A stretch of 64,000 nucleotides of DNA from a virus. Taxonomy: Duplodnaviria > Caudoviricetes. The notes below the pieces were generated by a model. It ran no database searches. It was not told where the DNA came from and saw only the letters and a list, made by a program, of their open reading frames with translations. This document shows, piece by piece, positions 4,586 through 26,552 of the stretch. The stretch lies in the IMG/VR virus record IMGVR_UViG_3300043642_000037, positions 64,001 through 128,000 of that record; one strand, given 5' to 3'. Positions within the stretch are counted from its first letter, which is position 1, and every line of letters begins with the position of its first letter. The translations under genes were made by a program, and so were the position numbers.

Positions 4586-5530
4586 TCACAGGGGGAAGTC
4601 GATGCGCTGGAAGGCCAGGGTGTTGCCGATGCCGATGCCGGGAGCGGCGTAGCTCCAGAACTCGATCAGATCCGCCTCCTGTTTGATGTACAGCGTCGCG
4701 TCCTGGAGCAGGAAGAACACGCCGAGGTAGTTCTGCGGCGCGAAGATGTACGCGCTGCGGCGGCCGATCGTCGGATCCGTCGACGGGTTGTCGATGATCT
4801 CGTTCTTGATCGAAGAAACCACTGGGATGCCCCAGAGCTTCTCCTCTGCCTCGATGCCGAGGTCGTAGTGCCGCGACGCCACGTCGTTGCCGACCGAGGT
4901 GGCGGGCAGGTCGATGGCCTCGTAGTACAGCTCCTTGGACATCAGCATCTTGCCGATCGGCTGCTTGCGACGGACGAGCGCCTGGAATCCCTTCTTGAAG
5001 GCGGACGAGCCGAAGCTCGCGGCCTGGGTGCGCTGGGTGGCCAGGTTGAGCGCGATCAGGCCGTTGATCGTGTCCGTGAACTTCTGGTCTTCCTGGTCCG
5101 ACATGTCCTTGACGGAGTTGTCGGACAGGATCTTCCTGATGTCGTTCTGGTACGTCATCAGGTTCCACTTCCGGGTCTTGAAGTGCTGGCTCTCCGTCTT
5201 GCCGAAGTAGACGGCGAAGCGCTTGCCCCGGAAGAACGTCGAGCGGCCGCTGCCGTTGAAGGGAACGAACGTGGCGATGGAGTCGGGCTCCTTCTCCACG
5301 ATCTTCTTCGGCATGTCGCTGTTCTCGTCGCGATCCAGCTCGTCGTCCTGGAGCAGGATCGGCTCGATGATCTCGCGGGCGAAGCTCTCCTGTCGGAGCC
5401 GCTGGCGGACGAACGCGCTGCCCTCGGCCTCCGCCTCCTTGGTGCGGCCCTCCTCGAGCTTGCGAACGAAGTTGCTGTTGATGTACTGGGCCGAAACCTG
5501 CTGGGTCTCGGTCTTGTAGGCTGCCGACAT
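4586..5530 (-). CDS. major capsid protein (HK97 fold)
   Basis: 314 aa; strong RBS AGGAG; follows protease, scaffold and decoration genes; HK97-like 'KLWGIPVVSSIK' and C-terminal 'IGIGN..AF.RIDF'; TKEA near the N-terminus. Confidence 0.85.
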   Translation of the reverse strand: MSAAYKTETQQVSAQYINSNFVRKLEEGRTKEAEAEGSAFVRQRLRQESFAREIIEPILLQDDELDRDENSDMPKKIVEKEPDSIATFVPFNGSGRSTFFRGKRFAVYFGKTESQHFKTRKWNLMTYQNDIRKILSDNSVKDMSDQEDQKFTDTINGLIALNLATQRTQAASFGSSAFKKGFQALVRRKQPIGKMLMSKELYYEAIDLPATSVGNDVASRHYDLGIEAEEKLWGIPVVSSIKNEIIDNPSTDPTIGRRSAYIFAPQNYLGVFFLLQDATLYIKQEADLIEFWSYAAPGIGIGNTLAFQRIDFPL

Positions 5531-5578
5531 TCAGATCTCCTGGGGGTCTTCGAGGGTTGATGGTTGCCCGGCCGAAGG

Positions 5579-6040
5579 CTACTTGGCGGCCGTGTCGCCG
5601 CCGGAGTAGTAGACGACGATCGTGCCATCGGTCGCGGTGTTGTCCTCGAGGACCTCGCCGATGATCTGGTTGTTGGTGACCGCCGGCTGCCACTTGCCGG
5701 CGGAGAACGTGAGGCGCGTGCTCGGCGGGTAGCTGCCCGCGCCGAGGTTGCTCGGGTCGAGCCGGAACACCGCGTTGGCGCGGAGGCAGACGGCCTTCTG
5801 GAGGAAGGCGCCGGCTGGATCGTCGTTGCCTTCGACGACGACCCAGGTGGAGATCGCCTCGACGGTCGACCGATCCGGGGTGGTGGCGGCGATGACCGCG
5901 CCATCGGTGCCGAGCTTGACCACCATGCCCAGGACGATGGAATCGAAGGTCCCGGTGGTGACGTGGATCGGGTACGTCTCGTCGATCGCACCCTCCTTGG
6001 GATACCCGCGCAGAATGTCGAACTTCGAGTTGAGCAGCAT
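5579..6040 (-). CDS. capsid decoration/cement protein
   Basis: 153 aa, immediately upstream of the MCP; beta-tulip-like 'GMVVKLGTDG', 'QIIGEVLE'; RBS GGAGG. Confidence 0.65.
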   Translation of the reverse strand: MLLNSKFDILRGYPKEGAIDETYPIHVTTGTFDSIVLGMVVKLGTDGAVIAATTPDRSTVEAISTWVVVEGNDDPAGAFLQKAVCLRANAVFRLDPSNLGAGSYPPSTRLTFSAGKWQPAVTNNQIIGEVLEDNTATDGTIVVYYSGGDTAAK

Positions 6041-6064
6041 GTCAGTTTCCTCCGTGGGTGCGAG

Positions 6065-6412
6065 CTACGAGAGAATCCAGTTTCCGAAGCGGCCGAAGGC
6101 GTCGTCCGACGCCTGCTTGATGCCTCGGGATTCGTTGGTTTCGGGATCCGCAGGCGAGCCGAGGGCCTCGACAACGCCAGACTGCTTCTGGAGCACGTTC
6201 TCGACGTACGCCAGGACGGACGGGTCGGTCTCCGCCAGCTTCCGTCGGATGTCGTCCGGGATGGCCTCGCCGTGCGCGGACGCGTGCGCGGACGCGACTT
6301 TGTCGACGCGAGCCAGACGAACGGACTCGGCGGCGGCTTGCTTCTCGCCCTCGACCGCATCCACGTACGTGGCCACGGCATCGAACACGTTGGCGACCTT
6401 GCGAAGGTTCAC
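6065..6412 (-). CDS. putative scaffold/core protein
   Basis: Helical; 5 of 6 Lys are in K-x-A; upstream of decoration and MCP genes. Confidence 0.6.
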   Translation of the reverse strand: MNLRKVANVFDAVATYVDAVEGEKQAAAESVRLARVDKVASAHASAHGEAIPDDIRRKLAETDPSVLAYVENVLQKQSGVVEALGSPADPETNESRGIKQASDDAFGRFGNWILS

Positions 6413-6561
6413 GAGCGCCCTCCTGCGAGCTTGCGCAGCGCGGTGATTCCGGCCGCGGCGGTGATGATGCGGACGGACTGGATCCTCCGGTGAGCGTCAC
6501 GCAGGTCCGCTTCGGCGCGGAGGTCGCTGGCGATCTTCCTGAGCGCGTCGGAATCACGCAT
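6409..6561 (-). CDS. small head/core protein (50 aa)
   Basis: MRDSDALRKIASDLRAEAD...ALRKLAGGRS; overlaps both neighbours; two K-x-A. Confidence 0.55.
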   Translation of the reverse strand: MRDSDALRKIASDLRAEADLRDAHRRIQSVRIITAAAGITALRKLAGGRS

Positions 6562-6733
6562 GGCCGTCACCGTCCTGTCGCAGGGCGGAGGCCATCCGGC
6601 GAAGCGCCTGCGCGAGGTCCGTGCGCGGCTGCGCGGCGGCTTCCTTGACGGCGGAGCGCTCCTCGCGCCGCCGACGATCCGCCTCGCGAGCGCCGCGGAC
6701 GGCGTCGTCGATCGCGTCGACAATCCTGGTCAT
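6554..6733 (-). CDS. small head/core protein (59 aa, not in ORF track)
   Basis: Manual translation MTRIVDAIDDAVRGAREADRRRREERSAVKEAAAQPRTDLAQALRRMASALRQDGDGHA; ATGA overlap with the upstream gene. Confidence 0.55.
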   Translation of the reverse strand: MTRIVDAIDDAVRGAREADRRRREERSAVKEAAAQPRTDLAQALRRMASALRQDGDGHA

Positions 6734-7005
6734 TGCCCCGGCTCCCTGGTCATGCTGTGGAGACCCCTGATGATGCTGGGCGCGGCGAGCCCGGTTGCGA
6801 CGCCGGCGCCGTACCCGACGTTTCGCGCGCGGGCGCGTGCCTCGCGCTCGTGGGCGCGCATCATGAGCGCGATCGGGATGCCGGCCGCGGCGGCGCCCAT
6901 GCCGCCGGCCGCCACCAGCGGGCCCAGGTCCGACGCCGTCCGGACAACGGACAACGCCGCGGCGCGGAGCCGATCAATCACGCACATGTCCGAGTCACCC
7001 GACAT
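6730..7005 (-). CDS. small Gly/Ala-rich hydrophobic head protein (91 aa)
   Basis: Start re-assigned to ATG 7005, just after the stop at 7008; two glycine-zipper-like segments. Confidence 0.55.
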   Translation of the reverse strand: MSGDSDMCVIDRLRAAALSVVRTASDLGPLVAAGGMGAAAAGIPIALMMRAHEREARARARNVGYGAGVATGLAAPSIIRGLHSMTREPGQ

Positions 7006-7007
7006 GC

Positions 7008-7607
7008 TCAGCGCGCGGCCTCGATGAGTCGAGCCGTGTCCGCGAAGCCGGCGACGAAGCTGTCGCTGGCCGTCTTGTGGATCCACTGGACGGTGCCGTT
7101 GTGGCCGTACAGCCACGCGGCCTCGGCGAGCTTGGTGAGGTCGATCTTGGTCTGCTCGTAGCCCAGGTCGTGGGCGTCGCGGACGATGTCCGGGTTCGCC
7201 GAGGCGAACTTCTCGAAGTCGTCGACGCCACCCGAGACCGCCGCGGTCTTCACGGCTGGCAGGGTTGTCGCGGTCCTCTGCGCGGCCTCGTCGTACTGGG
7301 CGAGGCGGGCCATGAATCCGTCGCACACCGCGGCGCCGTACAGGTTCGCCTCCTTGATGGTCGCGGCGTGCTCGTCCGCGACGACGCTCGCCGCGAGCTT
7401 GGTGAGGTCGTCGAGCGGCGAGGACTGCCCCGCCGTCTTGGTCGACGCCTCGACCTCGGCGGTCGCTTCCTTGAGGGCCTGCCGAAGCCCGGCCGCCGCG
7501 GCGTCGCTGGGCGACCCCCCGCTCGAAATGGCACGAGGAGACGGAGCCGCGGCGGCCGTCTTCTCGGCCTCGGGCTCCAGTAGCTGAAACGCTTGCGTGA
7601 GCATCAT
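7008..7607 (-). CDS. putative scaffold/core protein
   Basis: Start 7607 with GGAG RBS and upstream promoter; 9 of 10 Lys are in K-x-A. Confidence 0.65.
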   Translation of the reverse strand: MMLTQAFQLLEPEAEKTAAAAPSPRAISSGGSPSDAAAAGLRQALKEATAEVEASTKTAGQSSPLDDLTKLAASVVADEHAATIKEANLYGAAVCDGFMARLAQYDEAAQRTATTLPAVKTAAVSGGVDDFEKFASANPDIVRDAHDLGYEQTKIDLTKLAEAAWLYGHNGTVQWIHKTASDSFVAGFADTARLIEAAR

Positions 7608-7629
7608 GTGCGGTCTCCGTTGCAACGAG

Positions 7630-7658
7630 ATGATAGGGCGGTTGTCGAAAATCCCCAA
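7630..7658 (-). promoter_or_regulatory. sigma70-type promoter TTGGGG-N17-TATCAT for scaffold/capsid genes
   Basis: 17-nt spacer; nearly identical boxes to the promoter at 18125-18153. Confidence 0.6.
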
Positions 7659-7659
7659 G

Positions 7660-10527
7660 TCAGCCGATGACGACCGACCCCAGGAAGTCCACCACGTGCT
7701 CGACGTCGAGCACCAGGCCGACTATCGGATCCACGACGGATCCGATCTTCGCACGAGAAATGTCGAGCGCGCCCGACGAGGGCGATCTGCACTCGACCAT
7801 GCTGATCAGCGCGGCCATCTTGGGCGCGGTCTCGGTGACGTCCGGCACGTCCACGCCCTCGGCGGTGCCCCGCGTCGATCCGGGGCGAGGAGACAGCGCG
7901 GCCTGCCCCAGCGCGCCGATGCCGACCGCGAGCGGGGCCCGCGCCTTGCGGAGCCACGGATAGGCCGTCAGCATCTTGTAGCTTCCCAGCATGAGCGCCG
8001 TGCCTCCCAGCACCTTGCGCATGTGGGCGCGCGTGACCGCGTCCTGCGCCTCGAGAGCCGCCCCCCTGGTGGTGACCTCGTTCCCCGCGTGAAGGAGGTC
8101 CGTGGTCGGCGCGGCGTCGGGGCGCAGACCCGCCCCCTCGGGCACGAGGCGCCGGTACAGCATGTCGCCGGCGTAGGCGCGCTTCTCGCGGATCCTGGCG
8201 AGGGCGGACGCCAGGGCGGCGTCGACGTTGGACGCCTCGCCGAGCTTGCACTCGTCGAGCACGTGGTCGAGCAGCGACGGCGACTCGGAGAAAAGCTCCA
8301 GCGCCGCGTCAGCTGCGGCCGCGAGGCGGACCAGAACGTCGTGGGCGACCCTGGTCGGCCGGCCGGTCAGCTGGCTGATGGCCGCCTCGGCGAACTCCGC
8401 GTCCTTGAGGACCACGCCGGCTCGATCCGCGGTCGTGACGACGCCGCGGAGACCCACGCCGGGTGACAGCGCCGCGGCCTGCACGACGCGAGACGGCAAC
8501 CCCGGTGATCCCGACAGCCGGTCGCCCGCGTAGTCGCGAAACCGAACCGCGAGGTCCCTCTCGCCACGCGAAACGGTCGAGATCGCGATCGGCTCGCCGC
8601 GGATCACCTTGCTCATCTCCGACAGCTTTCGCGCCGCGGCCGTCTTCCGCGCCGCCGCGTCCGCCTCGACGCCGAGATCCGCCGCCAGGCGACCCCCGGC
8701 GTCCGCGACCTTCTTGAGCGTGTAGCCGATGCGGTCGGCCGGACGAAACACGCGGCTGATGTCGAAGAAGTCGGAGTCGGGGTTGTAGACGAAGTTCTTC
8801 GTGCCGTCGGGGTTGACCTGGTTCATCGCCAGCGCATGCTTGCAGTACTCGGCGCGGGACGGGGCCTTGTTGCCACACCGGGAGCACACGTCGTATTTGA
8901 TCTTGCAATTGTGAACAGCGAGGCCCTCGATGAGATAGCTCTCGTCTTCCTCAACTTCGAGATTGAACACTTGCGTCTCTGCGTACTGCGTTTCGATTTC
9001 CCGTATCGGAACGCAAACATAGTCTCCAACGATCTTTCTACTTTCCTTGCGGGCCAAGACCTCCCTTGCCTCGACCTTTGCGCAGGTAGTTTTCAGCTTA
9101 TATGCCCACTGTACACCGATGTGGATGACCCATTCAAACGTGTCTTCCGTGCTGAATCCGCTGCCAGCTTTGTGTGTCAGCTGATTGCAGGACGCGAGGA
9201 TTCCAAGCCGAAGAAGCATGTGACGCCACTGAGACGCTAAGTCACTCGAAGCGGTCGATACCTTCAACCAGCCGTCCCTACCGCAACCATCTCCGTTCGC
9301 GTACGCACCAAACAGCTCGCGCTGCATTTCAGGCGGCCAGTGCATTACGGCCTTCGATAATTTCTTTTGGCGGGCTGATACGCCTCCGTGCGTGAGGCAA
9401 AGCGCGGCTAGCTTGTCATCGCAAATCATGATTCCGCGCGCTGATTCACAATTCGCACGAACATACGTCCATGGTGCGTTTCGCGTTCCGAACTCCGCGC
9501 AGAGTTGACAAATTTCCGTGTGGATTGCGTCAGACTGATTCGTGGTCAGTTCGATGCCGTAAGGCGATCCTTCTCGCCAAATGATGTGACCTTCCGCCAC
9601 GTAATAGCCGAGCAGTCGAGCGAACGTACGGGACAGCTCAGGGGTTGTCGCTTCCGTTCGATCAATCGGAGCCAGCAGGAGTTGCGATTCCAGGCATGAT
9701 GCGTGCGTCCATTCACCTTCGACGCGAGCGTCTGGCCGCCAGCGTACGTTGCCTTTGGCTCGTTCTTTTTCTTTTACGGAGCCCCACGCGGTCGTCCAAA
9801 ATGGATGTTCGTCCGTTGCGTAGATGGTCGCGTGCGCTTCGCCGCGGATGGCGTGGATGTTTCCACGGTAAGGACGTTTGTGAGTGCTTGAGACGCGACG
9901 CGCTCTGCCTCGATGTGTAATGACCTCGTCGCCTTCGATGATCTCTTCGATGGCTTTTTGCGTCCCGTCAGCCAGGGTGACTCGGGCACCTGCCAAGAAG
10001 CAGCCCATCGACACTGCCGGGAACTCGCCCTGCTCGACGCGGTCCACCCACTCCGCGTCCTTTTCGTTGTCGATGACCGTCAGCAGCTCCACGCGGTGCA
10101 TGCGCGGGTTCCAGAACGCGCGTTTGACGTAGCCCGACGCCTTGGCAGGATCCTTGTTCTGGTGGTGCTTGAACGTGTGCGCCGGGTTGGTCTCGAACGT
10201 CCGATAGGTCTGGGTCAGCTCCTGGCCCGGGGCGACCCACCAGCGCTCGCCGCGAGCCGTGGCCTCCTTGCCGCGGGCGGGGACCGGATACTCCGAGAAG
10301 CCGTCACCGTTGCGGTTGGGCCCGTAGGTCTCCTCCGCGCCCATGGCGAGGAGCAGCAGGTGGGTCTTTCCGGGCTCCGGGCTGACGTTCTTGATGTAGT
10401 CGAGCGCGTCGGACGCGTGCTTGGTCACCCTGCCGACGTCGAACCGCCCTCCTCGCAGGGGCAGCACGAGCTGGAGGGTCAGCTCTCCCGTCGGAAACGT
10501 GTCCGCGAACTCGATGATCTTCTTCAC
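7660..10527 (-). CDS. prohead maturation protease (Ser/His) with Zn-finger, interrupted by an intein
   Basis: 'NRNGDGF', 'FKHHQN', 'PAVSMG|C', then CxxC..CxH and 'FFDISRVFRPAD'; located in the head operon. Confidence 0.8.
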   Translation of the reverse strand: MKKIIEFADTFPTGELTLQLVLPLRGGRFDVGRVTKHASDALDYIKNVSPEPGKTHLLLLAMGAEETYGPNRNGDGFSEYPVPARGKEATARGERWWVAPGQELTQTYRTFETNPAHTFKHHQNKDPAKASGYVKRAFWNPRMHRVELLTVIDNEKDAEWVDRVEQGEFPAVSMGCFLAGARVTLADGTQKAIEEIIEGDEVITHRGRARRVSSTHKRPYRGNIHAIRGEAHATIYATDEHPFWTTAWGSVKEKERAKGNVRWRPDARVEGEWTHASCLESQLLLAPIDRTEATTPELSRTFARLLGYYVAEGHIIWREGSPYGIELTTNQSDAIHTEICQLCAEFGTRNAPWTYVRANCESARGIMICDDKLAALCLTHGGVSARQKKLSKAVMHWPPEMQRELFGAYANGDGCGRDGWLKVSTASSDLASQWRHMLLRLGILASCNQLTHKAGSGFSTEDTFEWVIHIGVQWAYKLKTTCAKVEAREVLARKESRKIVGDYVCVPIREIETQYAETQVFNLEVEEDESYLIEGLAVHNCKIKYDVCSRCGNKAPSRAEYCKHALAMNQVNPDGTKNFVYNPDSDFFDISRVFRPADRIGYTLKKVADAGGRLAADLGVEADAAARKTAAARKLSEMSKVIRGEPIAISTVSRGERDLAVRFRDYAGDRLSGSPGLPSRVVQAAALSPGVGLRGVVTTADRAGVVLKDAEFAEAAISQLTGRPTRVAHDVLVRLAAAADAALELFSESPSLLDHVLDECKLGEASNVDAALASALARIREKRAYAGDMLYRRLVPEGAGLRPDAAPTTDLLHAGNEVTTRGAALEAQDAVTRAHMRKVLGGTALMLGSYKMLTAYPWLRKARAPLAVGIGALGQAALSPRPGSTRGTAEGVDVPDVTETAPKMAALISMVECRSPSSGALDISRAKIGSVVDPIVGLVLDVEHVVDFLGSVVIG
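8908..10002 (-). mobile_element. intein with LAGLIDADG homing endonuclease (365 aa) in the prohead protease
   Basis: Starts CFLAGARV, ends VFNLEVEEDESYLIEGLAVHN, +1 Cys; 'LLGYYVAEG' and 'FGAYANGDG' blocks; visibly lower GC than the exteins. Confidence 0.93.
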
Positions 10528-11066
10528 GGAAGGATTCCCCGCACCGCGCGCATCGCGTCGAGCCTGTGCCCGATGAGGTGCACCAGCGCGGCGTGCTTAT
10601 CCGCGGCGGCGCCCGATCGGCAGGCGTCCTCGAGCAGGTCGTCGACGCGCAGGTCGGCGGCTAGCCGCTGCATCGGGTCGACCGGTCCCTGATCCGGCTG
10701 CGCGCGAGAGCGAACCGCCGACTGCAGCATGCCGCCCAGTGATTGCATGCCGCCGACGCCGGCCGCGGTCAGCAGCGCCTGGTTTCGGGCGTCGCGGACC
10801 AGGTCCTTGGCGTGCGAGTGCGCGTCCGAGATCAGGGCGTGCCCCACTCCGAGCGCCGGAAGCCCGAGACCGAGGCCCCACGCCAGCGGGCGCTTGGCCA
10901 GGGACAGCGTCTCCTCCAGGCCGGCGGTCTTGACGCTGGCGTACGCCCCGAAGTCGAACACGGCCTGCCTCTCGCGCAGCTCAGCCGCGCGGGGATCGCC
11001 GTGTCTCAGCGCGGCCCGCTTCTCGGCGAGCGCGGCGGACGCGCGTATGACGTCGGCGAGGTTCAC
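10524..11066 (-). CDS. head/core protein with hydrophobic Gly-rich helices
   Basis: EKRAA, VKTAG, DKHAA; 'LAWGLGLGLPALGVG' segment; coupled stop/start. Confidence 0.6.
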   Translation of the reverse strand: MNLADVIRASAALAEKRAALRHGDPRAAELRERQAVFDFGAYASVKTAGLEETLSLAKRPLAWGLGLGLPALGVGHALISDAHSHAKDLVRDARNQALLTAAGVGGMQSLGGMLQSAVRSRAQPDQGPVDPMQRLAADLRVDDLLEDACRSGAAADKHAALVHLIGHRLDAMRAVRGILP

Positions 11067-11069
11067 GCG

Positions 11070-11342
11070 TCACGCGTCCCGCGCGGGCGACACCGAGTCG
11101 CGGATCCGACGCTCGCCCTCCGCGGACAGGCGCTCGCCGCTCGCAGCTGCCAGCGACAGGATGCCGCCGGCGACGAGCCTCGCGGTCTTCCTTCGGACGA
11201 ACGATCGCGCGCCGATGAGACCCGCCACCTTTCCCGGGTGAAGCTCGCCCACGCCCGCGATCTCGCCGACGATACGATGCAGGCCCGCGGCCTTGACGAT
11301 CGCGACTGTTTCGGGCCTCAGGAGGTTGTCGAGAGTGGCCAT
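11070..11342 (-). CDS. small head/core protein
   Basis: 90 aa; VKAAG, GKVAG, RKTAR. Confidence 0.55.
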   Translation of the reverse strand: MATLDNLLRPETVAIVKAAGLHRIVGEIAGVGELHPGKVAGLIGARSFVRRKTARLVAGGILSLAAASGERLSAEGERRIRDSVSPARDA

Positions 11343-11344
11343 CG

Positions 11345-12181
11345 CTACTTGTCCTTTCCGCCGCCGGTAACCGAGCGCTCGGAGTCCGCGATCAACTTGA
11401 TCGACATGTAGTCCGGCCCAGACCCCGACATCACCGCCTGTCGGAGGAACGAGCGGACCGCGTTCTTGTCGGTGGATAGGGTCGGCGCGAATCGAGCCAT
11501 CGTATGGTAGGCCTCCATCAGCGTCCTGTCGTCGGCGGCGGACAGAACCGGGTCGCTCTGCTTGAGGTCGCCCAGGATCGCGTGGCGCGCGGACTCGTCG
11601 CCGGCGCGGCTGACCGACTCCATGGCCTTGTTCGCGATGTCCCGGAGGAGGTTCGCGCCCGTGGTGCCCATCTCCTTGCCGAACGCGGATATCGCGGCCG
11701 ACCCGCCCATGTGCATGGGGTCCTTGCGCTCGCCGAACTCCCGGCCGAGGAGCATGCGCTTGATCGACTCTCCGATGCCCCCGCTGATCCCGGAGGCCAC
11801 GCCCTGAAGCGGCGCCGCGCCAACCTGGCTCAGCCCTCCCATCAGGCCGGATGGCTTGCCTGAGTGCATGCCTTGGCCCAGCATCTGGTCCCCGACGTTG
11901 CCCGCGAACTCCCCGATCGCACTGCCGGCACGCCTCACGGGCCCGTTGGAGGACATGGCCTGCGTGAAGGGCAGCGCGAACTGCGGAGGCAGCGCCGCGA
12001 CCTTGGACCCTGCCGCGCGATCCAGCGCCTTCTCGGTGCCCGACGCCCGGTGCACCGCCTTCTCCGCGATTCCCGGCAGCATGGCGCCGACCGCGAGGGG
12101 GAGAACGACGCCGGCCCGCTTCCGGACGAAGCGGTCCGCGCCGTGACGAGCGACCATGCCGACGATGTCTTTCAGCTGCAC
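11345..12181 (-). CDS. Gly-rich head/core protein
   Basis: RKRAG, SKVAA; Gly-rich helices, then a globular C-terminus (DPVL..FAPTLSTD..FLRQ). Confidence 0.6.
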   Translation of the reverse strand: MQLKDIVGMVARHGADRFVRKRAGVVLPLAVGAMLPGIAEKAVHRASGTEKALDRAAGSKVAALPPQFALPFTQAMSSNGPVRRAGSAIGEFAGNVGDQMLGQGMHSGKPSGLMGGLSQVGAAPLQGVASGISGGIGESIKRMLLGREFGERKDPMHMGGSAAISAFGKEMGTTGANLLRDIANKAMESVSRAGDESARHAILGDLKQSDPVLSAADDRTLMEAYHTMARFAPTLSTDKNAVRSFLRQAVMSGSGPDYMSIKLIADSERSVTGGGKDK

Positions 12182-16747: not shown

Positions 16748-16750
16748 GGA

Positions 16751-18558: not shown

Positions 18559-19130
18559 GGAAGGTCCTGTCTGGGAGTGGTCCCCAACACGTGGTCCAGC
18601 CCGCGCCCGACGACGTGACCGAGGCCCCTGCCGACCCCGAGACCGATTGGGGTTCCAATCATGCCGCCGGCGGTGCCGCCGTACATCATGCCGGCAAGGC
18701 CGCCCACGCCGCCGAGGAGACGCGACATTCGGCCCTCCGAGGCGTCCTGGCGCATCATGCTCGGCAGCGCCGCGGCGGTCAGCAGGGTGCCCGCGCGTCC
18801 GGCGGCCTGCATGAATGGCCGGCCGGGCATCGAGGGCCACAGGACGTTGCGCCAGTGGAGAGAGCCGCCGGGTGCGAACGTCCTGGCGCCCTCGACGAAG
18901 GCGTTGGGTCCCTGCCCGAAGGCGACGAGCTTGGCGGTGCCGGCCGCGGAGTCGACGAGGCCCTGGCCCAGGTAGGCCAGCTTGGCGGCGCGAACCCCCT
19001 CGGTGAGGGCCTGCACGATTGTCGACAGCTCCGTCGAAGGTTTTGCATGTTGGTGCGGCCGATGTCCGTGTCTTGCGAAGTGTTCGCGCATGGTGTCGAC
19101 GGAGTACCCTGGGTCGTTCGGACCGAACAC
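18555..19130 (-). CDS. glycine-zipper head/ejection protein candidate
   Basis: C-terminal 'LLGGVGGLAGMMYGGTAGGMIGTPIGLGVGRGLGHVVG'; AKLA; exact start uncertain. Confidence 0.55.
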   Translation of the reverse strand: MFGPNDPGYSVDTMREHFARHGHRPHQHAKPSTELSTIVQALTEGVRAAKLAYLGQGLVDSAAGTAKLVAFGQGPNAFVEGARTFAPGGSLHWRNVLWPSMPGRPFMQAAGRAGTLLTAAALPSMMRQDASEGRMSRLLGGVGGLAGMMYGGTAGGMIGTPIGLGVGRGLGHVVGRGLDHVLGTTPRQDLP

Positions 19131-20908
19131 TAGTACCTTCCTTCCGGGCCCTGCCCGAACTCGGTTCCGGCGGCGTACGCCGGAACGGGCGAGTAGCCGT
19201 GAACGTCGGCGTGGTCGCCGCGGTGGGCGCCGGCCAGCAGGCTCTCCTTCAGGTACCGGTGACCAAGACGCGCCATCCAGTCTGGGTTCAGCAACGGGGT
19301 TCTCGACGCGGGCCGCATGAGCGGGGCCGCCATCGGAGCGTTGTCCGCCACGTTCACCTCGTGAACCCCGCGACGCGCGAGCACGCTTGCGACGTCGGGC
19401 GTCACCCGGGTTCCGGCGGTGAAGTGGAACGCGTCCTGCGCGAGCGTCTCGCCCGCTGCCTCGGCCAGGCCGACACGCCTGTGGGACGCGGCGAGCGCGG
19501 CGCGGAACCTGTTGTAGTCGATCACGTCGCCCTTCATGAAGGCGTCGTCCGGCCCCGGATCGATGATCTGGACGTGGGACAGCACGCTTCTCGCGAGCGT
19601 CTCGAGGTGGCGCTTGTCGACGTCCGCGCCGGCGCGCCGGTACACGTCGTGAAGAGCGTCGACCAGGTAGCGCCTGCCCTCGCCGAGCCCCTTGTGACGG
19701 ACGATCTCGTCGGGACGAGGCACGCCGTCCGACAGCGTGTCGCCGGCGAACAACGGCTGGCCTACGGCCACCGTCACCCGCTGGTCCGGCGGGACGTAGT
19801 GGCGCGACCCCTCGACGGTGACGTAGGCGCCTCCCTGTGGGGCGGGCTCGACGATCCCGACCTTGCCGTCCCTGTCCGCGAGCACGGCCTTGTGGAGGAA
19901 TGAGGTCGGTATCTCGAGGAGCTGGCGGACCCCCTTTATCCCCTCGAGCTGCTTCTTGTCGGTCGCGGCCGCAGCGACGCGGCCGCCGTGCTTGGCGTTC
20001 AGGCTGAACTGGGTCAACGGCTCACTGAGCGCCTGCGCCGCGCGCATGCCGACGTTGGTGCCCAGCACGTGCGGGTGTCCCGAGGGGTCGAGACCCTGGC
20101 AGCGCTGGCAGATGCCGTGCGGCGCCTCGCAGGTCATCGGCGATCGGACTGTGACGGGGTCCCCCTTCGCCGCGATTGACGATGCGAGCCCAGGAGTCAC
20201 CAGACGACCGTCGGTCAGGTAGCGATCGATCAGGTGCGGATCGGCCGCGGCCATCTCGATCCCGTTCCGCGTGCCGCAGTCGAGGGTCGTGATGAGCTTG
20301 TCGCCCATATTGTTGACGAGGATCTTCGCCAGGTCCCCCGGCTCGACGACCGAGATGTTCGACCTCACCGCGTTGACTCGAGCCTCGCCGCCCGCGACCC
20401 AGGCGTCGGCGGGCGTCAGGCCCTCGGAGAAGCTCTTCTTGATCAACCAGGGCACCGTTCGGTCCCTGGAGTCCCTGGCCAGGACCGGAGAGCCGACCGC
20501 GCGCATGAGCTGGGCCGCGTTGCCGCGTCCGCCCGACCTCACCATCTCCCCCATCGCCCCCTTGTCGCGCTTGGCGAGCGAGAGCATCGCGTCCTGCGCC
20601 GCGAACAAGGCCTTCTCCCTGTCCGCGTGCGTCCTCGCCGCGTGGAAGGCGTCAACGTGCGGCGCCAGCATGGCGTCCCGCTCCGGGTGCGGCGCGATGT
20701 CGTCGAGCCCGACCGAGATGCCCTCCAGCGTCGCGACCTCGTCGCCGAGCCGCTTGAGCCTGGTGACGACCTCGGGATACGCGGAGGGATCGGACTTCGC
20801 CAGGCGAACCAGGCTGTCGTTGAGCACGCCCTTGGTCAGGGCCTGGTCGTCGTGTCGCCAGCCCTTCGGCAGCACCGCGTCGACGAGATGTTGTCCCAGC
20901 GTTCGCAT
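19130..20908 (-). CDS. rpoC: DNA-directed RNA polymerase, beta' C-terminal subunit
   Basis: 'SGGRGN', 'SFSEGL', bridge helix 'EAR...EPGDL', Zn site DCGT/RSPMTC/ICQRC, trigger loop 'AAQALSEPLTQFSLNAKH'; start re-assigned to ATG 20908. Confidence 0.93.
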   Translation of the reverse strand: MRTLGQHLVDAVLPKGWRHDDQALTKGVLNDSLVRLAKSDPSAYPEVVTRLKRLGDEVATLEGISVGLDDIAPHPERDAMLAPHVDAFHAARTHADREKALFAAQDAMLSLAKRDKGAMGEMVRSGGRGNAAQLMRAVGSPVLARDSRDRTVPWLIKKSFSEGLTPADAWVAGGEARVNAVRSNISVVEPGDLAKILVNNMGDKLITTLDCGTRNGIEMAAADPHLIDRYLTDGRLVTPGLASSIAAKGDPVTVRSPMTCEAPHGICQRCQGLDPSGHPHVLGTNVGMRAAQALSEPLTQFSLNAKHGGRVAAAATDKKQLEGIKGVRQLLEIPTSFLHKAVLADRDGKVGIVEPAPQGGAYVTVEGSRHYVPPDQRVTVAVGQPLFAGDTLSDGVPRPDEIVRHKGLGEGRRYLVDALHDVYRRAGADVDKRHLETLARSVLSHVQIIDPGPDDAFMKGDVIDYNRFRAALAASHRRVGLAEAAGETLAQDAFHFTAGTRVTPDVASVLARRGVHEVNVADNAPMAAPLMRPASRTPLLNPDWMARLGHRYLKESLLAGAHRGDHADVHGYSPVPAYAAGTEFGQGPEGRY

Positions 20909-20909
20909 G

Positions 20910-21790: not shown

Positions 21791-21799
21791 GGCACCCCA

Positions 21800-21807
21800 A
21801 GTATAGG
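21800..21807 (-). promoter_or_regulatory. -10 element CCTATACT, probable leaderless transcript
   Basis: Same CCTATACTT as at 50242-50250; 9 nt from the start codon. Confidence 0.6.
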
Positions 21808-21810
21808 CCG

Positions 21811-24800
21811 TCACTCGCCGATGTGGATATGGTCGTTCAGGGCAACCTCTCCGCGGTGATACGCGGCGCGGGCGTCCTGCAGGGACGCGAACCTCTTCGC
21901 CGTTCGACCGGAGGCCGGCTGGGTGGCCCTGTGGAGACCGAGCACGGCCTCCATGTCGGGCGCGACGTTGAGCATGCCCGGCCTTCGATCCGCGAAGATC
22001 TGGTGCGAGAGCGTCATCCGCTTGACGTCCTCCACGCCCGCGGGTGTCACCGGGGCGTGGATCTGCATCGCGTCGCCATCGTAATCCGCGTTGGTCCCTC
22101 GCTCAGCGAAGGGGTTGAGTGTGATCGTCTTGCCTTCGGTCATCCTTGGGTAAGCGCCGATGATGTTGTGGCGGGTCAACGAGGGCGCACGGTTGACCAT
22201 GACCGGGCGCTCTCGTGTCTCGTTGATCAACTCGTCTTTGGCGATCGGCGCTTTGTCCTCGACCAGCTTTTGCGCGTCGATAGCCGAGTAACCCCGCCGT
22301 ACGAGCCGTCCAATTACGAACTTGGAATACATGCCCCAGAGCATGTCGGTGGGTACGCCGATCTCATCCATGGATAGCGTGGGGTCTGGCGCGATGGTCG
22401 CGCGTCCGCTGACGTCCTGCTGGCGCTTCATGAGCTTCGATTGGAAGAACCCTGAGCCAGGCCGGCTTCCGGTGATCGTTGCGATGTATCCCTTGGCACC
22501 TCGGCGCAGCACCCCGGGGCTAACGGGGTCACCGACGCCGAACAACGCGCTGACAGCGTCGAACAGGTGTCTGCGCGGCGCGTGAAGCTCGGATTCCGGT
22601 AGGACCTTCGTCGAGTCCTTGAGCTGGTCGTTTGCCAGGAACGCGTCGCGGTACAGCAGGTTCGCGTCGCCGACCTGGAGCCTGCCGTCCTTGAGGGGAA
22701 GGATCGGTCGAATGATCGGCGGCGTGACAGGGACCTTGCTGATCACGTAGGCATCCGCGGGCTTCAATCCGTGCGCCTGGAGGGCCGCCAGGTACTTCGC
22801 CTGCTTGACCGCGTCGTCGAGCGCCGCGCCGCGCAGGTGCCTGGATCGATCGCGCAGCTCCTCGAGACGGGACGGCACGTCGATGCGGCCCAGCTCGCTG
22901 CGAAACCACTCTCCGCCGCGGCCGGTTCTCTCCGCGAACTCCTTCTGGGTCAGGCCGAGGAGCCGGCGCACGGGCTCCTCGAACACGGGGTTGACGATCG
23001 ACTCGGACAGCTCGACGTGCGACCACTTGGTGCCGGCCATTCCGCCGGTCCTCGCGGGGTCGAACATCCCGCCGGTCTCCGGGCGCAGGTCCTTGGCTCG
23101 AATCATCTTGCTCGGGTCGGGCAGCTCGCCGGAGGACATCTTCAGGATGTCCGCGTCGGTGAGCGGCCCTAGGGCCAGCCTCGAGCCCGCCTTGGAGATC
23201 TTGACGCCGGCGCCCGAGAGCATCGCGTGCAGCTTGTCGTACGCGAACGGCGTGCGCGGGGCGGGCGCGGGGGTGCCGAGCTGCACCGAGCGCCAGAACT
23301 CGTCGTTGCGCTGGCTCTTGATCGCCGCGGACTCGCGGAGCACGGCCCTCGCGTTGTGCGCGACGAGACCGTCGAACTCCATCTTGCCGATGCCCTTGGC
23401 GCCGTCGTCGCCGCCTCGCGCGGGCTGCTGGTTGTAGTCGTAGCGCTCGGCGCCGTGCGCCGCCCAGTTGCTGTCGGTCGTCTTGAAGAGCTTGAGGAAG
23501 TACGACTTGCCGACGAACACGCCCGGCACGCTCTTGCCCGTCATCGGGTCGACCACCGTCTCCTTGTCCGACAGGCCGTTGCTCTTGAGCAGGCCCTTGG
23601 CGTATGCGACGGCGTCCCGCGCGGCGAACTGCGGGACGAGAATGGGCTCGCCCCGGTGGTCGGCGACCTTGCCGAGCGACGCCTCGACCAGCTGCGCGGG
23701 GTTGATGCGCGTGATGATGCCGGCGCTGGTGAGGATGACGTCGACCGGGCGTCCCTTCTCGTCATGAATCATTTGTGCATCTGGGATTATTTTGGCGACT
23801 ACGCCTTTTGCGCCAAACCTGTTCGAGATCTTGTCGCCGACCTGCAGGGTCTCCTGCGTCTTGACCGTGGCGCTGTGGCGCTCGCCGGTCTTCGAGACGT
23901 CCGTCACGACTCCGGGGTGGTCGTGGGTCCACGTCTCGACGATTTCGGCGTAGGGACGAACGAGCGACTTGGAGAGCTTCCCCAGGAGCGCCGCGTCGCC
24001 CGTCGCCGTCTCGGGCCTCACGCCGATGATGATCGGGTCGCCCTTCTGCAGGACGGTGCCAGGCCGGGCGACGCCGCTCTCGTCGAGCGCGTCGTACTGC
24101 CGGGCGGAGTAGCGCCCGCCGAAGTACGCCCGATGCTTCTCCCTGCTGGTCTCGACGTCGCCCGCCTTGCTGAGCACGTGATGGAACATGTGCTCGGACG
24201 TGAGCTTGTCCGCCGCGCCTTGGCTGACCACGATCCCGTCGTTGGTGTTCAGGCCTCGGTACGGCATGTACGCGACGCGCAGGTTCGTCCCCAGCGCCAG
24301 CACACCGTCCCTGGTGAAGTTGGACTCGGCGAGCGGCTGTCCCTCGCGCACCAGGTCCCCCTCCTTCACCGTCAGCTTGTTGTTGAGGTAGGTCTTGGCC
24401 GCGAGCGGGAAGTCGTGATCGTAGTGCAGTCGAAGGGGGCCGTCAGCGGCGTGCTTCTCGCCGCCCGGAACGAAGTGAATGTAGTCGGCGTCGATCTTGT
24501 CGATGCGGCCGGCCGACGGCGCGGTCGGCACGATGAGTCGAACCATCTCGCGCTCGACCGACATTCCAGGATTCCAGGACTCGACCTGCACCAGAGGCGC
24601 CTCGCGATGCGTCAGAGGGAGCGCCTGGCCCTGGTGCTTGGACGCCATCAGGGCGCGGTTTCCCTGCATGCCGTTGAGGAGGGGAAGGAGGTTGGTCGTC
24701 GCGCCGTACATGTCCGACGCGTGCCGCACCTGGTGCGTCACCTCGGACGACGCGACGCGCTGCACGGATCCGTCCTTCATCACGTCGACGATTCGTCCCG

Positions 24801-26187
24801 CGCCGAGGTCGCCCCCGGGGAACGCGACCACGGCCCTCGCCATGTCCGCGGCCTTGAGGTACTCGTCCTTACCCGTCCGGACGTTTCGCACCGGCGCGTA
24901 CAGGTTGCCGTGATCGTCTCGTCTCGTGCCCACGCCGACGCGCAGGTCCACGCCGACCTTGAAGGACTCGGGCACGCGCGTGGGATCGATGATGCCGAGA
25001 TGCGTGGGATGGACGTCCCGCGCCTCGAGGGGAATGGCGCGCTCGGACGCGATCGCACCCTCGCCCAGCAGGGTGACGCGCGACGCCTCGTCGATAAGCT
25101 CCATCGGGTTTATCTGCATCGGGACCGCCGACAACGAGCTTGTCGTCAGGAACCCGGTGACGGCCCGCGTGAGAGGCGCGGCAGGCAGGGCGTCCTTGAT
25201 CGAGCCGCGGCTGGCGTCCAGCTTCCAGCCCAGCTTGTTGCGCATGGCCCGGGCGTTCAGCTGCAGGCGCTCCTTGACGAAGTCGTCCACCGAGTGGAAC
25301 GTCTTGAACGCGAGGCTGTCGCGGTCGTCCACGTCCGCGGCCTTGCGATGAATCTCGAGGATCTTGTTCGACGCGGCGAGCATCGCCTGTCCCGACGCCT
25401 TGTCGAACGGCGCGCCGAGCGTCACGCGGTTGACCTCCGGGTCCATCGACGTCGCGTCGAGGTACTCGCGAATGGCTCCGACGCGGGCCTCGGGCGTCGC
25501 GTGGTTCCGCTTGGCCGGGTGGATCAGGGCCTCGTAGAGACGCCCGACGTGGGCGTCAGGCGATCGAAAGGCGTCGCGATTGACGGCCGCGACCTGCGAT
25601 CCCCAGCTTCGAACGATGTCCGGATGCGGGACGTCGAGGGCGCGAAGGACCGGGTAGAGCGCGACGCGGGCGGTCGTGTGCCCCGGCTGCATGTACAGCA
25701 GGCCCTTCTCGGGCTCCATCATGACCTTGAAGTTCGCGCCCTTCGACAGGTTGAAGGCGGCCTCCAGCTCCTCGTTGCCCCGTCGCCTGACGTAGACGCC
25801 CGGCTTGGTCCGGAGCTGGTTGGACACCGAGTACTCGGTGCCGTCGAGAATGAACGTGTGGCGCGGTGTGAAGTAGGGAAGGTGGAGCAGCGTGAATCCC
25901 TGCGCGCGACTGGTCACCGCGCCCTGGGCGTCGCGCACGGTCAGGTCGCCGCGGACGCGCTCGGACAGCGTCTTTCCCTCGAGGATGGCCACCTTCTGCT
26001 CGCGCGACGAGAACTCGCGCGGCTCGACCCTGGCGTCGGCCAGCTCGACCGTCCACTTGCCCGCCTTCATGGGGAAGGCCCTGCCGAGCCCCTGAATGGC
26101 CGCCTGGCGGATCTTCTCCCGGCGCGTGGCGCTGTCCTCGAGGACCGGCCTTAGAACCGGCTGCGTTTTGGTAGAAGCATCCGTCAT
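21811..26187 (-). CDS. rpoB: DNA-directed RNA polymerase, beta subunit fused to the catalytic N-terminal half of beta'
   Basis: Beta motifs 'GNRALMASKHQGQA', 'GDKISNRFGAKG', 'GKMEFDGL'; beta' motifs 'VSGRATI', 'NRAPSL', catalytic 'NADYDGD'. Confidence 0.95.
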   Translation of the reverse strand: MTDASTKTQPVLRPVLEDSATRREKIRQAAIQGLGRAFPMKAGKWTVELADARVEPREFSSREQKVAILEGKTLSERVRGDLTVRDAQGAVTSRAQGFTLLHLPYFTPRHTFILDGTEYSVSNQLRTKPGVYVRRRGNEELEAAFNLSKGANFKVMMEPEKGLLYMQPGHTTARVALYPVLRALDVPHPDIVRSWGSQVAAVNRDAFRSPDAHVGRLYEALIHPAKRNHATPEARVGAIREYLDATSMDPEVNRVTLGAPFDKASGQAMLAASNKILEIHRKAADVDDRDSLAFKTFHSVDDFVKERLQLNARAMRNKLGWKLDASRGSIKDALPAAPLTRAVTGFLTTSSLSAVPMQINPMELIDEASRVTLLGEGAIASERAIPLEARDVHPTHLGIIDPTRVPESFKVGVDLRVGVGTRRDDHGNLYAPVRNVRTGKDEYLKAADMARAVVAFPGGDLGAGRIVDVMKDGSVQRVASSEVTHQVRHASDMYGATTNLLPLLNGMQGNRALMASKHQGQALPLTHREAPLVQVESWNPGMSVEREMVRLIVPTAPSAGRIDKIDADYIHFVPGGEKHAADGPLRLHYDHDFPLAAKTYLNNKLTVKEGDLVREGQPLAESNFTRDGVLALGTNLRVAYMPYRGLNTNDGIVVSQGAADKLTSEHMFHHVLSKAGDVETSREKHRAYFGGRYSARQYDALDESGVARPGTVLQKGDPIIIGVRPETATGDAALLGKLSKSLVRPYAEIVETWTHDHPGVVTDVSKTGERHSATVKTQETLQVGDKISNRFGAKGVVAKIIPDAQMIHDEKGRPVDVILTSAGIITRINPAQLVEASLGKVADHRGEPILVPQFAARDAVAYAKGLLKSNGLSDKETVVDPMTGKSVPGVFVGKSYFLKLFKTTDSNWAAHGAERYDYNQQPARGGDDGAKGIGKMEFDGLVAHNARAVLRESAAIKSQRNDEFWRSVQLGTPAPAPRTPFAYDKLHAMLSGAGVKISKAGSRLALGPLTDADILKMSSGELPDPSKMIRAKDLRPETGGMFDPARTGGMAGTKWSHVELSESIVNPVFEEPVRRLLGLTQKEFAERTGRGGEWFRSELGRIDVPSRLEELRDRSRHLRGAALDDAVKQAKYLAALQAHGLKPADAYVISKVPVTPPIIRPILPLKDGRLQVGDANLLYRDAFLANDQLKDSTKVLPESELHAPRRHLFDAVSALFGVGDPVSPGVLRRGAKGYIATITGSRPGSGFFQSKLMKRQQDVSGRATIAPDPTLSMDEIGVPTDMLWGMYSKFVIGRLVRRGYSAIDAQKLVEDKAPIAKDELINETRERPVMVNRAPSLTRHNIIGAYPRMTEGKTITLNPFAERGTNADYDGDAMQIHAPVTPAGVEDVKRMTLSHQIFADRRPGMLNVAPDMEAVLGLHRATQPASGRTAKRFASLQDARAAYHRGEVALNDHIHIGE

Positions 26188-26552
26188 GGGATCCTGAATG
26201 GCCTGATCTCGGCCTCCTCCGCGCCCCCGCCGCCACCCGCTGCGGGCTGCGGACGCTGAGCCGGCGCGTCAGTGAAGTAGGACAGGATGATCACGACTTC
26301 GCCCTCCTTGGTGAAGGTTCGATCCTCGAATCGGATCTTGCCGCGCCCGGCCCACAGCTCGTTGCAAAGCTCGTCGTACGCTCCGATGTCGCGCGGCAGG
26401 TTGAACACCTGGGTCGTCTGCCGGATCGGCAGGCGCGGGCCCTGCGCCAGGGCCTGCTGCGGAATGCCGAAGGGGCTCGCGATCGGGCTCTGCGTCATCT
26501 GGTTGGCCTGATCGATCACGTCCTGAAAGCCGCCCGGATTTGGCTTGTTCAT
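26184..26552 (-). CDS. hypothetical protein between portal and RNAP
   Basis: AGGA RBS; ATGA overlap with the RNAP start. Confidence 0.65.
   Translation of the reverse strand: MNKPNPGGFQDVIDQANQMTQSPIASPFGIPQQALAQGPRLPIRQTTQVFNLPRDIGAYDELCNELWAGRGKIRFEDRTFTKEGEVVIILSYFTDAPAQRPQPAAGGGGGAEEAEIRPFRIP

Follow-up and report, generated by a model that had tools for sequence, protein, structure and literature searches.

Many lysines in the head-morphogenesis operon of this uncultured phage are followed, two residues downstream, by alanine, which raises the question of what the resulting K-x-A pattern does. The initial annotation of the 64,000-nucleotide stretch of DNA analyzed here (the window) had read K-x-A as the recognition site of a prohead protease, spread across the head and core proteome and marking a virion cargo list that includes the RNA polymerase.

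Distribution and specificity of the K-x-A motif

Lysines in K-x-A were counted for each protein of a 195-gene set and compared, by a binomial test, with the expectation from that protein's own alanine fraction. The early hand counts of 11/12, 9/10 and 5/6 were reproduced exactly with this independent gene set, the single sites quoted alongside them (TKEAE, TKHAS, KKVAD, RKTAA and EKHAA) all lie where they had been placed, and the enrichment persists far above expectation after alanine correction. The strongest signal in the genome belongs to a remote helical protein of 332 aa (49236-50234, minus strand), where 11 of 12 lysines are in K-x-A against 1.9 expected (p = 1.4e-8), followed by a scaffold-like, alanine-rich protein of 199 aa (7008-7607, minus strand; 9 of 10 against 2.2 expected, p = 1e-5). 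Both remain significant after Bonferroni correction over 195 proteins. Four further proteins, all on the minus strand, are individually borderline but replicate in orthologues: a small head-operon protein of 115 aa (6065-6412; 5/6, p = 6e-4), a 445-aa protein (16751-18088; 13/35, p = 5e-4), a head-module protein of 288 aa (12172-13038; 7/14, p = 1e-3) and an operon protein of 90 aa (11070-11342; 3/3, p = 0.005). The enrichment in a 180-aa operon protein (10524-11066, minus strand; 3/5, p = 0.054; sole orthologue detected in L016) is suggestive only, and a possible 50-aa protein with a weak gene call (6409-6561, minus strand) has both of its lysines in K-x-A and orthologues only in L001, L002, L007 and L008.

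Only lysine, only offset +2 and only the coding frame show the signal. Genome-wide, alanine is found at +2 from lysine 252 times against 188 expected (z = 4.7), with no alanine enrichment at any other offset from -5 to +6 and none for R-x-A. For six core proteins, alanine occupies +2 of 48 of the 80 lysines and each other offset only 6-17 times; at the nucleotide level, the coding frame holds 48 copies of AAR-NNN-GC and each of the five alternative frames between 0 and 3. The enrichment is also confined to about 6-8 proteins, and so does not extend over the whole head proteome as had been proposed. The protein at 13693-16536 is not above chance (8/42, p = 0.1), nor is the remaining genome (174 against 158.5 expected). 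Tail-side virion genes show no clear depletion (28/176 against 20.4 expected), such that counts alone do not provide the clean virion cargo list that the initial annotation had envisaged.

Inspection of the individual proteins reveals distinct arrangements of the sites. The gene at 7008-7607 lies between the protease and capsid genes, the usual place of scaffold genes, and its K-x-A sites are spaced 10-35 residues apart; we predict its product to be the main protease substrate, cut to small peptides. In the 16751-18088 protein, residues 1-105 contain six lysines, every one in K-x-A, two internal repeats of ~85 aa each start immediately after a K-x-A, and the Lys/Asp-rich tail is free of the motif. 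The 49236-50234 protein gives a well-defined AF2 model (pLDDT 88.6) in which most sites are within helices and not loops, and the model has no structural match above Z 5.5.

These patterns are retained in homologues, as the conservation check shows across the clade. In 120 homologue clusters for each of two families, 1304 of 1726 lysines (382 expected) are in K-x-A for 7008-7607 and 1267 of 1753 (245 expected) for 49236-50234, that is to say 72-76% of lysines over 240 clusters. An alignment of 35 sequences of the latter family contains eleven columns with lysine in 33-35 of 35, invariably in K-x-A. Orthologues of 7008-7607 (35-54% identity) place 11-14 of 13-19 lysines in the motif; the corresponding values are 5-7 of 8-13 for 6065-6412, 7-12 of 15-28 for 12172-13038 and 9-15 of 24-40 for 16751-18088. 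Within motif columns Lys is about 12 times as frequent as Arg and Ala is found at +2 in 98-99%, with a variable middle residue; sites are gained and lost among homologues. The residue after the alanine is biased toward Ser and Ala, and that after the lysine is diverse (T, E, L, F, I).

The clade has cultured representatives, Salmonella phage Arash (OQ632216) and Vibrio phages D69, D181 and D148, whose capsid proteins are 37-39% identical to that of the window. In these phages the head module is syntenic, the protease and the 12172-type protein are orthologous, and K-x-A recurs in equivalent proteins that are annotated merely as 'structural' or 'hypothetical'. By BLAST, 12172-13038 is orthologous to Arash gp220 (K-x-A 10/21) and D69 0268 (11/30), and the positional equivalents of 6065-6412 are enriched too (Arash gp225, 7/13; D69 0273, 6/10). 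When all 229 Arash proteins are ranked, gp220, gp225, gp223 and a weak match to the 49236 family are the top four and the protease is sixth. An unbiased ranking of the 189 proteins of relative G003 (51% GC) likewise puts orthologues of the same families at the top, and the head module of D69 (44% GC) carries the same pattern, with Ser following Ala. Bacillus phage G and mycobacteriophage Myrna, whose proteases are distant family members, gave no comparable signal in the neighboring head-module genes examined. Taken together, the data support K-x-A as a conserved short linear motif centered on the head-morphogenesis operon.

The prohead protease and the capsid protein

The gene at 7660-10527 (minus strand) encodes a prohead (capsid maturation) serine protease precursor of 955 aa, with 11 of 45 lysines in K-x-A, in which an N-terminal catalytic domain is followed by an intein and a C-terminal extension of ~400 aa. 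It matches phrog_18299 ('head maturation protease') with E 9.6e-6, and an intein-less orthologue does so with 1.5e-9; the only other sequence-family matches are two PHROGs without a named function. No Pfam protease family was matched at E<=1 by the window protein or by three intein-less orthologues. The domain of the intein-less orthologue was modeled with AF2 (pLDDT 89.4) and searched with VIA-align against 48,161 chains, where only T4 gp21 (5jbl; Z 10.0, rmsd 2.6, 128 aligned) and the VZV protease (1vzv; Z 9.6) reached Z>=8. The HCMV (Z 6.9) and KSHV (Z 6.6) proteases were the next matches, and in Foldseek herpesvirus proteases ranked top with weak scores (E about 0.1). As judged from the modeled fold, which is that of T4 gp21 and herpesvirus assemblin, the product is the capsid-maturation protease that had been proposed from the sequence. 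Fifty homologues all retain S179 and H128 of L014, which correspond to Ser173 and His122 of the window protein, and His121/122 and Ser173 are the putative catalytic residues; a Zn-ribbon-like Cys/His insert lies C-terminal to the candidate catalytic Ser. The gene order of protease, scaffold-like protein, small proteins and major capsid protein (MCP) is kept in relatives, Arash and D69.

The intein (8908-10002, minus strand; 365 aa) carries a LAGLIDADG homing-endonuclease domain (Pfam LAGLIDADG_3, 33.2 bits with a cut-off of 22.5), and its Hint/Intein_splicing matches are below cut-off. It extends from Cys176 to His-Asn540 ahead of Cys541, with junctions G|CFLAG and VHN|C, and intein-less orthologues read continuously through SMGC(R/K)IKYDVC, lacking exactly residues 176-540. 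Since the insertion is immediately after Ser-Met-Gly of the predicted active site, excision would be required before the protease can work.

K-x-A sites flank the catalytic domain. TKHAS (10411-10425, minus strand) lies in the flexible N-terminal arm, within a low-pLDDT part of the orthologue model, and at this position of alignment A1 K-x-A is found in 44 of the 46 sequences having a lysine; self-cleavage at this candidate site would release a propeptide of ~38 aa. KKVAD (8701-8715, minus strand) coincides exactly with the C-terminal boundary of the domain. Among 50 diverse homologues its K and A are near-invariant, all 48 sequences with a lysine there have K-x-A, and Bacillus phage G gp19 shares a site at this position (EKVAS, residue 248). 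By position, KKVAD is a candidate release site analogous to the herpesvirus R site. RKTAA (8635-8649, minus strand) is the next site after it. Across the family, K-x-A is depleted within the catalytic domain (21 of 733 lysines against about 54 expected), and the C-terminal extension shows an enrichment (324 of 1005 lysines, at an alanine fraction of 12%).

The gene at 4586-5530 is called MCP because its product is 37% identical to gp226 of Arash, which bears the annotation 'major capsid protein'. Only one of its 21 lysines is in K-x-A, namely TKEAE in the N-arm (5429-5443, minus strand; K31-A33), and the mature part is not above chance. The site is invariant among all orthologues, with equivalents at residue 27 in Arash gp226 (VKEAG) and D69 0275 (TKEAG), and it is a candidate for a maturation cut, by which the protein would lose about 33 residues from its N-terminus. 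Some relatives have K-K-A within the mature capsid protein, which counts against reading the motif as a cut site.

Interpretation of the motif

We consider it probable that K-x-A↓(S/A/G) is the cleavage code read by the prohead protease that the phage itself encodes, since that protease has the gp21/assemblin fold and known members read P3-x-P1. By analogy with these, the cut would come after the alanine, with P3 occupied by Lys and P1 by Ala. The earlier reading of K-x-A as the protease recognition site gains support from the domain-border sites and from a P3-x-P1 shape that fits the fold; cleavage itself, the scissile bond and the fate of each substrate are inferred. No literature report of K-x-A specificity was found for a phage head-maturation protease. 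In the proposed pathway the protease precursor would first lose its intein, and the prohead would take in the protease, the capsid protein, the scaffold-like 7008-7607 protein and further core proteins (6065-6412, 12172-13038, 16751-18088, 49236-50234 and small neighbors). The protease would then free its own catalytic domain via the conserved flanking sites and trim the capsid protein N-terminus, and the multi-site proteins would be chopped to short peptides able to exit the shell ahead of DNA packaging.

Several other explanations bear weighing against protease cleavage. The enriched proteins contain 13-22% alanine and the genome is 66% GC, from which K-x-A could arise as a by-product of composition. 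This explanation is refuted, and retains practically no probability, because the excess survives the per-protein alanine correction, concerns only lysine and only +2, and is also found in relatives of 44-53% GC. An unlikely but more substantial alternative is that K-x-A docks proteins to the prohead, whether at the inner capsid surface, the portal or a protease exosite, with no cutting. Many sites sit inside predicted helices of the well-folded 49236-50234 protein, their positions are strongly conserved in its family, and the published Arash virion proteome recovers gp220, gp223 and gp225 at 80-100% coverage, unlike complete degradation; the purity of those particles is doubtful since 116 proteins were detected. 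However, residues i and i+2 point to opposite sides of a helix, which makes a helical binding face unlikely, and the pattern suits a segment bound in extended form in the cleft of a protease. Nor does docking account for the near-invariance of sites bordering the catalytic domain of the protease or for the depletion inside it, and the lone N-arm site of the MCP suits a maturation cut.

Two further readings place the weight on the lysine. That the same protease cuts directly after it (Lys at P1, Ala at P2') is improbable, even though a P1 pocket could impose the strict preference for Lys with little Arg, and maturation of the HK97 capsid protein involves a cut after Lys. The characterized proteases related by fold recognize P3 and P1, the Ser/Ala bias following the alanine is P1'-like, and the diversity of the residue next to Lys would be unusual for P1'. 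Covalent modification or cross-linking of the lysine by another enzyme would agree with selection acting on Lys itself and with the poor tolerance of Arg, and yet we find it very improbable, given that a scan of head-operon proteins and other large ones found no Lys-modifying enzyme, and that the domain-border sites and the scaffold-like distribution are left unaccounted for.

The RNA polymerase (21811-26187) has 9 of 77 lysines in K-x-A against 8.4 expected. At this chance level the motif gives no evidence for its proposed role as marked cargo, despite the EKHAA site at 24445-24459. Relatives G003-G005 carry an insert of ~130 residues in the beta module at the EKHAA position, with K-x-A on both sides, and in particle preparations of Arash no protein is more abundant than RNA polymerase (PMC10585845). 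These two observations suggest that the protease might cut the polymerase, or excise the insert, in the capsid. It is doubtful that K-x-A reaches beyond scaffold clearance as a clade-wide, sequence-readable program that also processes packaged enzymes such as the polymerase; if it did, the virion would carry a proteolytically matured multisubunit RNA polymerase.

Comparison with known maturation proteases

T4 gp21 cuts after (L/I)-x-E, and the phiKZ and SPN3US prohead proteases (gp175 and gp245) use an S/A/G-x-E motif. Cleavage at K-x-A by the prohead protease would resemble these systems in that a three-residue P3-x-P1 motif recurs in several head proteins, often with many sites each; K-x-A is enriched in 6-8 head-associated proteins, each of which has 5-13 sites, and this is conserved across the clade. 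The fold is shared with T4 gp21 (Z 10.0), and the gene here also belongs to a head module. SPN3US gp245 cuts after A-x-E (P3-P2-P1) with Ser preferred at P1', cleaves itself C-terminally and acts on multi-site propeptides (PMC10052503, PMC5694885). In contrast to the Glu at P1 and the hydrophobic or small P3 of all three phage proteases, the window protease is predicted to read Ala at P1 and Lys at P3. Because the third motif position is Ala and not Glu, the comparison suggests a T4/phiKZ-like mode of working in another specificity class. The window protease further differs from the three in its Zn-ribbon-like insert, long C-terminal extension and intein, and its sites are predicted from sequence. 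The Arash paper mentions neither a protease nor cleavage.

Herpesvirus assemblin is a protease-scaffold fusion of the pUL26 type, and it cuts at R and M sites of the form (V/L/I)-x-A↓S. It differs from the window protease in belonging to a herpesvirus and not a phage, in its aliphatic P3 in place of Lys, and in having two sites in one polyprotein as opposed to many in several proteins. The two share their fold, Ala at the presumed P1 and, here as an enrichment of Ser/Ala, the P1' preference, and the likeness to the R site extends to a conserved site that ends a catalytic domain of ~250 residues and is followed by a long C-terminal part.

K-x-A enrichment in the head-morphogenesis operon

The source virus record comprises 156,126 bp at 66% GC, and 195 genes were called with our own codon-usage caller in the window, which covers bases 64001-128000. 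The head-morphogenesis operon lies on the minus strand and includes the capsid protein gene (4586-5530(-)), small genes, an intein-bearing protease of 955 aa (7660-10527(-)), further proteins up to 18088 and the RNA polymerase. Pfam indicates this multisubunit polymerase to consist of two chains, a beta/beta'-N fusion (21811-26187(-)) and a beta'-C part (19130-20908(-)). Among cultured phages, a Megablast search with the operon returned no matches. A plus-strand ORF picked by the caller at 6560-7027 is probably a shadow call, and a small Gly/Ala-rich minus-strand ORF within 6730-7326 resembles gp224 of Salmonella phage Arash in composition.

Lys residues in the K-x-A context (Lys, any residue, Ala) were recounted with an independent gene set, which reproduced the hand counts of the initial annotation exactly and recovered every single site quoted there at its position. 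For the protein encoded remotely at 49236-50234(-), 11 of 12 Lys residues lie in K-x-A (binomial p=1.4e-8 against its own 15.7% Ala). The scaffold-like protein at 7008-7607(-) follows with 9 of 10 (p=1e-5) and the 6065-6412 protein with 5 of 6 (p=6e-4), each tested against its own Ala fraction. The binomial test also flags the proteins at 16751-18088 (13/35), 12172-13038 (7/14) and 11070-11342 (3/3). Pfam and PHROGs searches with the K-x-A-rich proteins gave nothing informative, where the sole match was phrog_16160 (function unknown) for the 49236-50234 protein.

The initial annotation had named a correction for Ala content as the step that might dissolve this signal; with that correction applied, the enrichment persists. 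Across offsets -5 to +6 genome-wide, Ala is in excess after Lys at offset +2 only (252 versus 188 expected), while Arg-x-Ala occurs at expectation. Within the six core proteins listed above, Ala stands at +2 of Lys in 48 of 80 cases, as compared with 6-17 at each other offset, and Lys alone is enriched among residues two ahead of an Ala. The corresponding DNA pattern, AAR-NNN-GC, appears 48 times in frame versus 0-3 times in any other frame. The enrichment therefore survives the composition test, and the K-x-A observation is confirmed and robust.

The signature had been described as extending across the head proteome, including the RNA polymerase, and this breadth is not borne out. Counts are at or near chance for the polymerase (9/77 Lys in K-x-A versus 8.4 expected), the 947-aa protein at 13693-16536 (8/42, p=0.1), the capsid protein (1/21) and the rest of the genome without the operon and the 49236 gene (174 versus 158.5 expected). 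The signature therefore belongs to about 6-8 proteins. As K-x-A counts in the polymerase do not exceed chance, the motif lends no support to it as marked cargo, and we reject that proposal.

Conservation of the motif in relatives

An IMG/VR search with the capsid protein returned 18 related loci (68-98% identity, 52-68% GC), several of them on 168-190-kb contigs. The initial annotation had suggested examining the sites in homologues, and alignments reveal a fixed Lys and a fixed Ala in K-x-A on either side of a variable middle residue. Orthologues of the 7008-7607 protein (35-54% identity) carry 11-14 K-x-A among 13-19 Lys, the 6065-6412 and 12172-13038 families retain the motif in like manner, and new lineage-specific Lys sites are again K-x-A. 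Neither the capsid-protein orthologues nor those of the adjacent 153-aa protein show such enrichment. Across 120 homologue clusters of the 7008-7607 protein, 1304 of 1726 Lys (76%) lie in K-x-A versus 382 expected, where the share in no cluster falls under 58%; the corresponding figures for 120 clusters of the 49236-50234 protein are 1267 of 1753 versus 245. Inspection of the latter family reveals eleven alignment columns with Lys in 33-35 of 35 sequences, always as K-x-A, whereas the remaining Lys-bearing columns are never K-x-A and swap freely with Arg. In motif columns, Lys is about 12 times as frequent as Arg, and Ala occupies the +2 position in 98-99% of cases. Flank preference is weaker, with Glu, Thr, Val or His ahead of Lys, and Ser (3.4-fold) and Ala are favoured after the motif Ala.

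The same pattern is found independently in other genomes. When the 189 called proteins of the relative G003 (168 kb, 51% GC) were ranked for K-x-A, orthologues of the 7008, 49236, 12172, 6065 and 16751 proteins fell within the top six. Cultured relatives were identified by a protein-level search, namely Salmonella phage Arash and Vibrio phages D69, D181 and D148; their capsid proteins share 37-39% identity with that of the window, and their head modules are syntenic with it. In Arash, K-x-A holds 10/21 Lys of gp220, 8/16 of gp223 and 7/13 of gp225, and these three proteins lead a whole-genome ranking of 229 called proteins in the order gp220, gp225, gp223. The protease, gp222, ranks sixth, and rank 4 is an ORF at 174466-175335, the sole and weak match of the 49236-family profile. 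In D69 (44% GC), the counts are 10/17 for 0271, 11/30 for 0268 and 6/10 for 0273, where the residue after the motif Ala is mostly Ser. The sole K-x-A of the window's capsid protein, at residues 31-33, is invariant across the clade, and the capsid proteins of Arash, gp226, and of D69 carry VKEAG and TKEAG, respectively, at residue 27.

The protease, its candidate substrates and the RNA polymerase

The protease is interrupted by an intein of 365 residues with a LAGLIDADG domain (8908-10002(-)), delimited as an insert relative to intein-less orthologues. The insertion point directly follows the Ser-Met-Gly of the predicted active site, a stretch that is uninterrupted in those orthologues. Lengths of about 1000 aa or of 1300-1400 aa, with 2-3 matched stretches, recur in many database homologues, pointing to one or two inteins as a common feature of the family. 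In an intein-less orthologue, the first 250 residues match phrog_18299 'head maturation protease' (E 1.5e-9) and no Pfam family, and the protease domain found only a chance match to a Cys-rich toxin among PDB sequences. An AlphaFold model of this domain, built on 50 homologues (pLDDT 89), was compared with 48,161 PDB chains, of which only T4 gp21 (Z 10.0) and the varicella-zoster protease (Z 9.6) reached Z>=8, with the HCMV and KSHV proteases ranking next. A Ser and a His are invariant throughout the alignment. Directly after the putative catalytic Ser, a Cys-x2-Cys ... Cys-x-His cluster (8716-8907(-), residues ~541-604) looks like a zinc-ribbon insert, and its residues C189, C192, C203 and H205 (numbering of the intein-less orthologue L014) are invariant in the 50 homologues. 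We know of no such insert in T4 gp21 or assemblin. An exhaustive search places 3277 representative homologues in the family at 50% identity, with Rhodococcus phage E3 gp77 (annotated 'prohead protease') and Bacillus phage G gp19, named head maturation protease (PMC12484599), as distant members.

Within the protease family, K-x-A is near-invariant at two places, the flexible N-arm (44/46) and the precise C-terminal boundary of the catalytic domain (48/48), where the latter is positioned like the herpesvirus release site. The motif is depleted inside the catalytic domain (21/733 Lys versus ~54 expected) and 2.7-fold enriched in the C-terminal extension. The richest multi-site protein, at 7008-7607, occupies the scaffold position, with its K-x-A sites 10-35 residues apart. 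In the 16751-18088 protein, two tandem repeats of ~85 aa (17264-17779(-); GGDKGN ... KMD..QRP.GYA ... SPSG.NSV) each begin directly after a K-x-A (EKRA, RKIA), and they are followed by a Lys/Asp-rich tail whose lysines lie outside the motif.

ESM Atlas and two fold searches assigned no function to the 49236-50234 protein; the best Z was 5.5, and BFVD yielded two viral proteins that are themselves uncharacterised. A 650-aa BFVD 'Prohead protease' aligns to part of its model (probability 0.90, E 1.1). A similar short helix lies near the C-terminus of the protease (LDVEHVVDFLG, 7663-7716(-)) and of this protein (IDVEKLAAVLG, 49281-49319(-)), which may, on weak evidence, be a shared capsid-targeting tag. 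A pattern derived from the two proteins matched those two only, and it is therefore not evidence for a C-terminal tag common to K-x-A proteins.

The EKHAA site of the polymerase (24445-24459(-)) marks an insertion hot spot in the beta module. At this position, the relatives G003-G005 (loci L043-L045) hold a Lys-rich insert of ~130 residues bracketed by K-x-A (KHA and KSA ahead; KEA, KSA and KVA after), and the site is absent from the closest relative. A 2842-aa open frame spans the G003 polymerase gene, which may hold further inserts. The beta subunit is reported as the most abundant protein in the particle preparation of Arash (OQ632216, locus L038), and the authors of that study warn of possible carry-over (PMC10585845). 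In both Arash and the window, the polymerase genes are located within or next to the head module, as is the beta'-C orthologue in D69. A virion-packaged multisubunit polymerase would be plausible in the clade, and the K-x-A sites at EKHAA and its inserts are a tentative lead only.

A candidate cleavage code among prohead proteases

To our knowledge, readable prohead protease cleavage motifs are known for few model phages only, and the phage examples we know of always cut after Glu. T4 gp21 cuts after (L/I)-x-E, and herpesvirus assemblin cuts (V/L/I)-x-A↓S. Those members of this fold that have been characterised recognise P3 and P1, a geometry shared by K-x-A with a Ser, Ala or Gly behind it. 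By analogy, the cut would fall after Ala rather than after Lys. SPN3US gp245 cuts after A-x-E, favours Ser at P1' and undergoes C-terminal self-cleavage. Propeptides in that system contain the motif in several copies, which, as the authors of that work suggest, yield fragments small enough for capsid exit (PMC10052503, PMC5694885).

We consider a prohead protease code, K-x-A↓(S/A/G), the likeliest mechanism and a reasonably probable one. The cleavage reading is weakened by the Arash virion proteome, which gives coverage values for 116 proteins and places the K-x-A-rich proteins at 80-100% (PMC10585845). It is weakened also by the 49236-50234 protein, predicted with confidence as a folded helical protein that matches no known fold and has most of its sites inside helices, and by tail-side virion genes, where the expected K-x-A depletion was not found. 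A further weakness comes from phage G, where mild enrichment occurs only in the protease (8/32) and gp21 (7/50), and from mycobacteriophage Myrna, where it occurs only in the large protease-bearing gp97 (15/61); the neighbouring head-module genes examined in these phages carry no comparable scaffold-level signal. The initial interpretation is partly supported: a cleavage code remains the best reading of the motif, with a cargo list reduced to a handful of core proteins without the polymerase.

Our literature search, of incomplete coverage, did not turn up any earlier description of K-x-A as a prohead motif. Most likely, the novelty is the specificity, in a protease subfamily lacking a Pfam model, and the kind of system is known. 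A different prohead code, Lys-x-Ala, appears to be in use across a large, mostly uncultured clade, which extends over the protease representatives, 156-190-kb metagenomic genomes and cultured Salmonella and Vibrio phages. If confirmed, this code would allow processed head proteins, mature termini and disposable scaffold proteins to be predicted purely from sequence among hundreds of metagenomic proteins annotated as 'hypothetical', and two cultured phages permit a direct test. The enzyme connects the herpesvirus branch of the protease fold with the phage branch: in contrast to the Glu at P1 of gp21- and gp245-type phage codes, the K-x-A code has Ala at the inferred P1, in common with herpesvirus assemblin.
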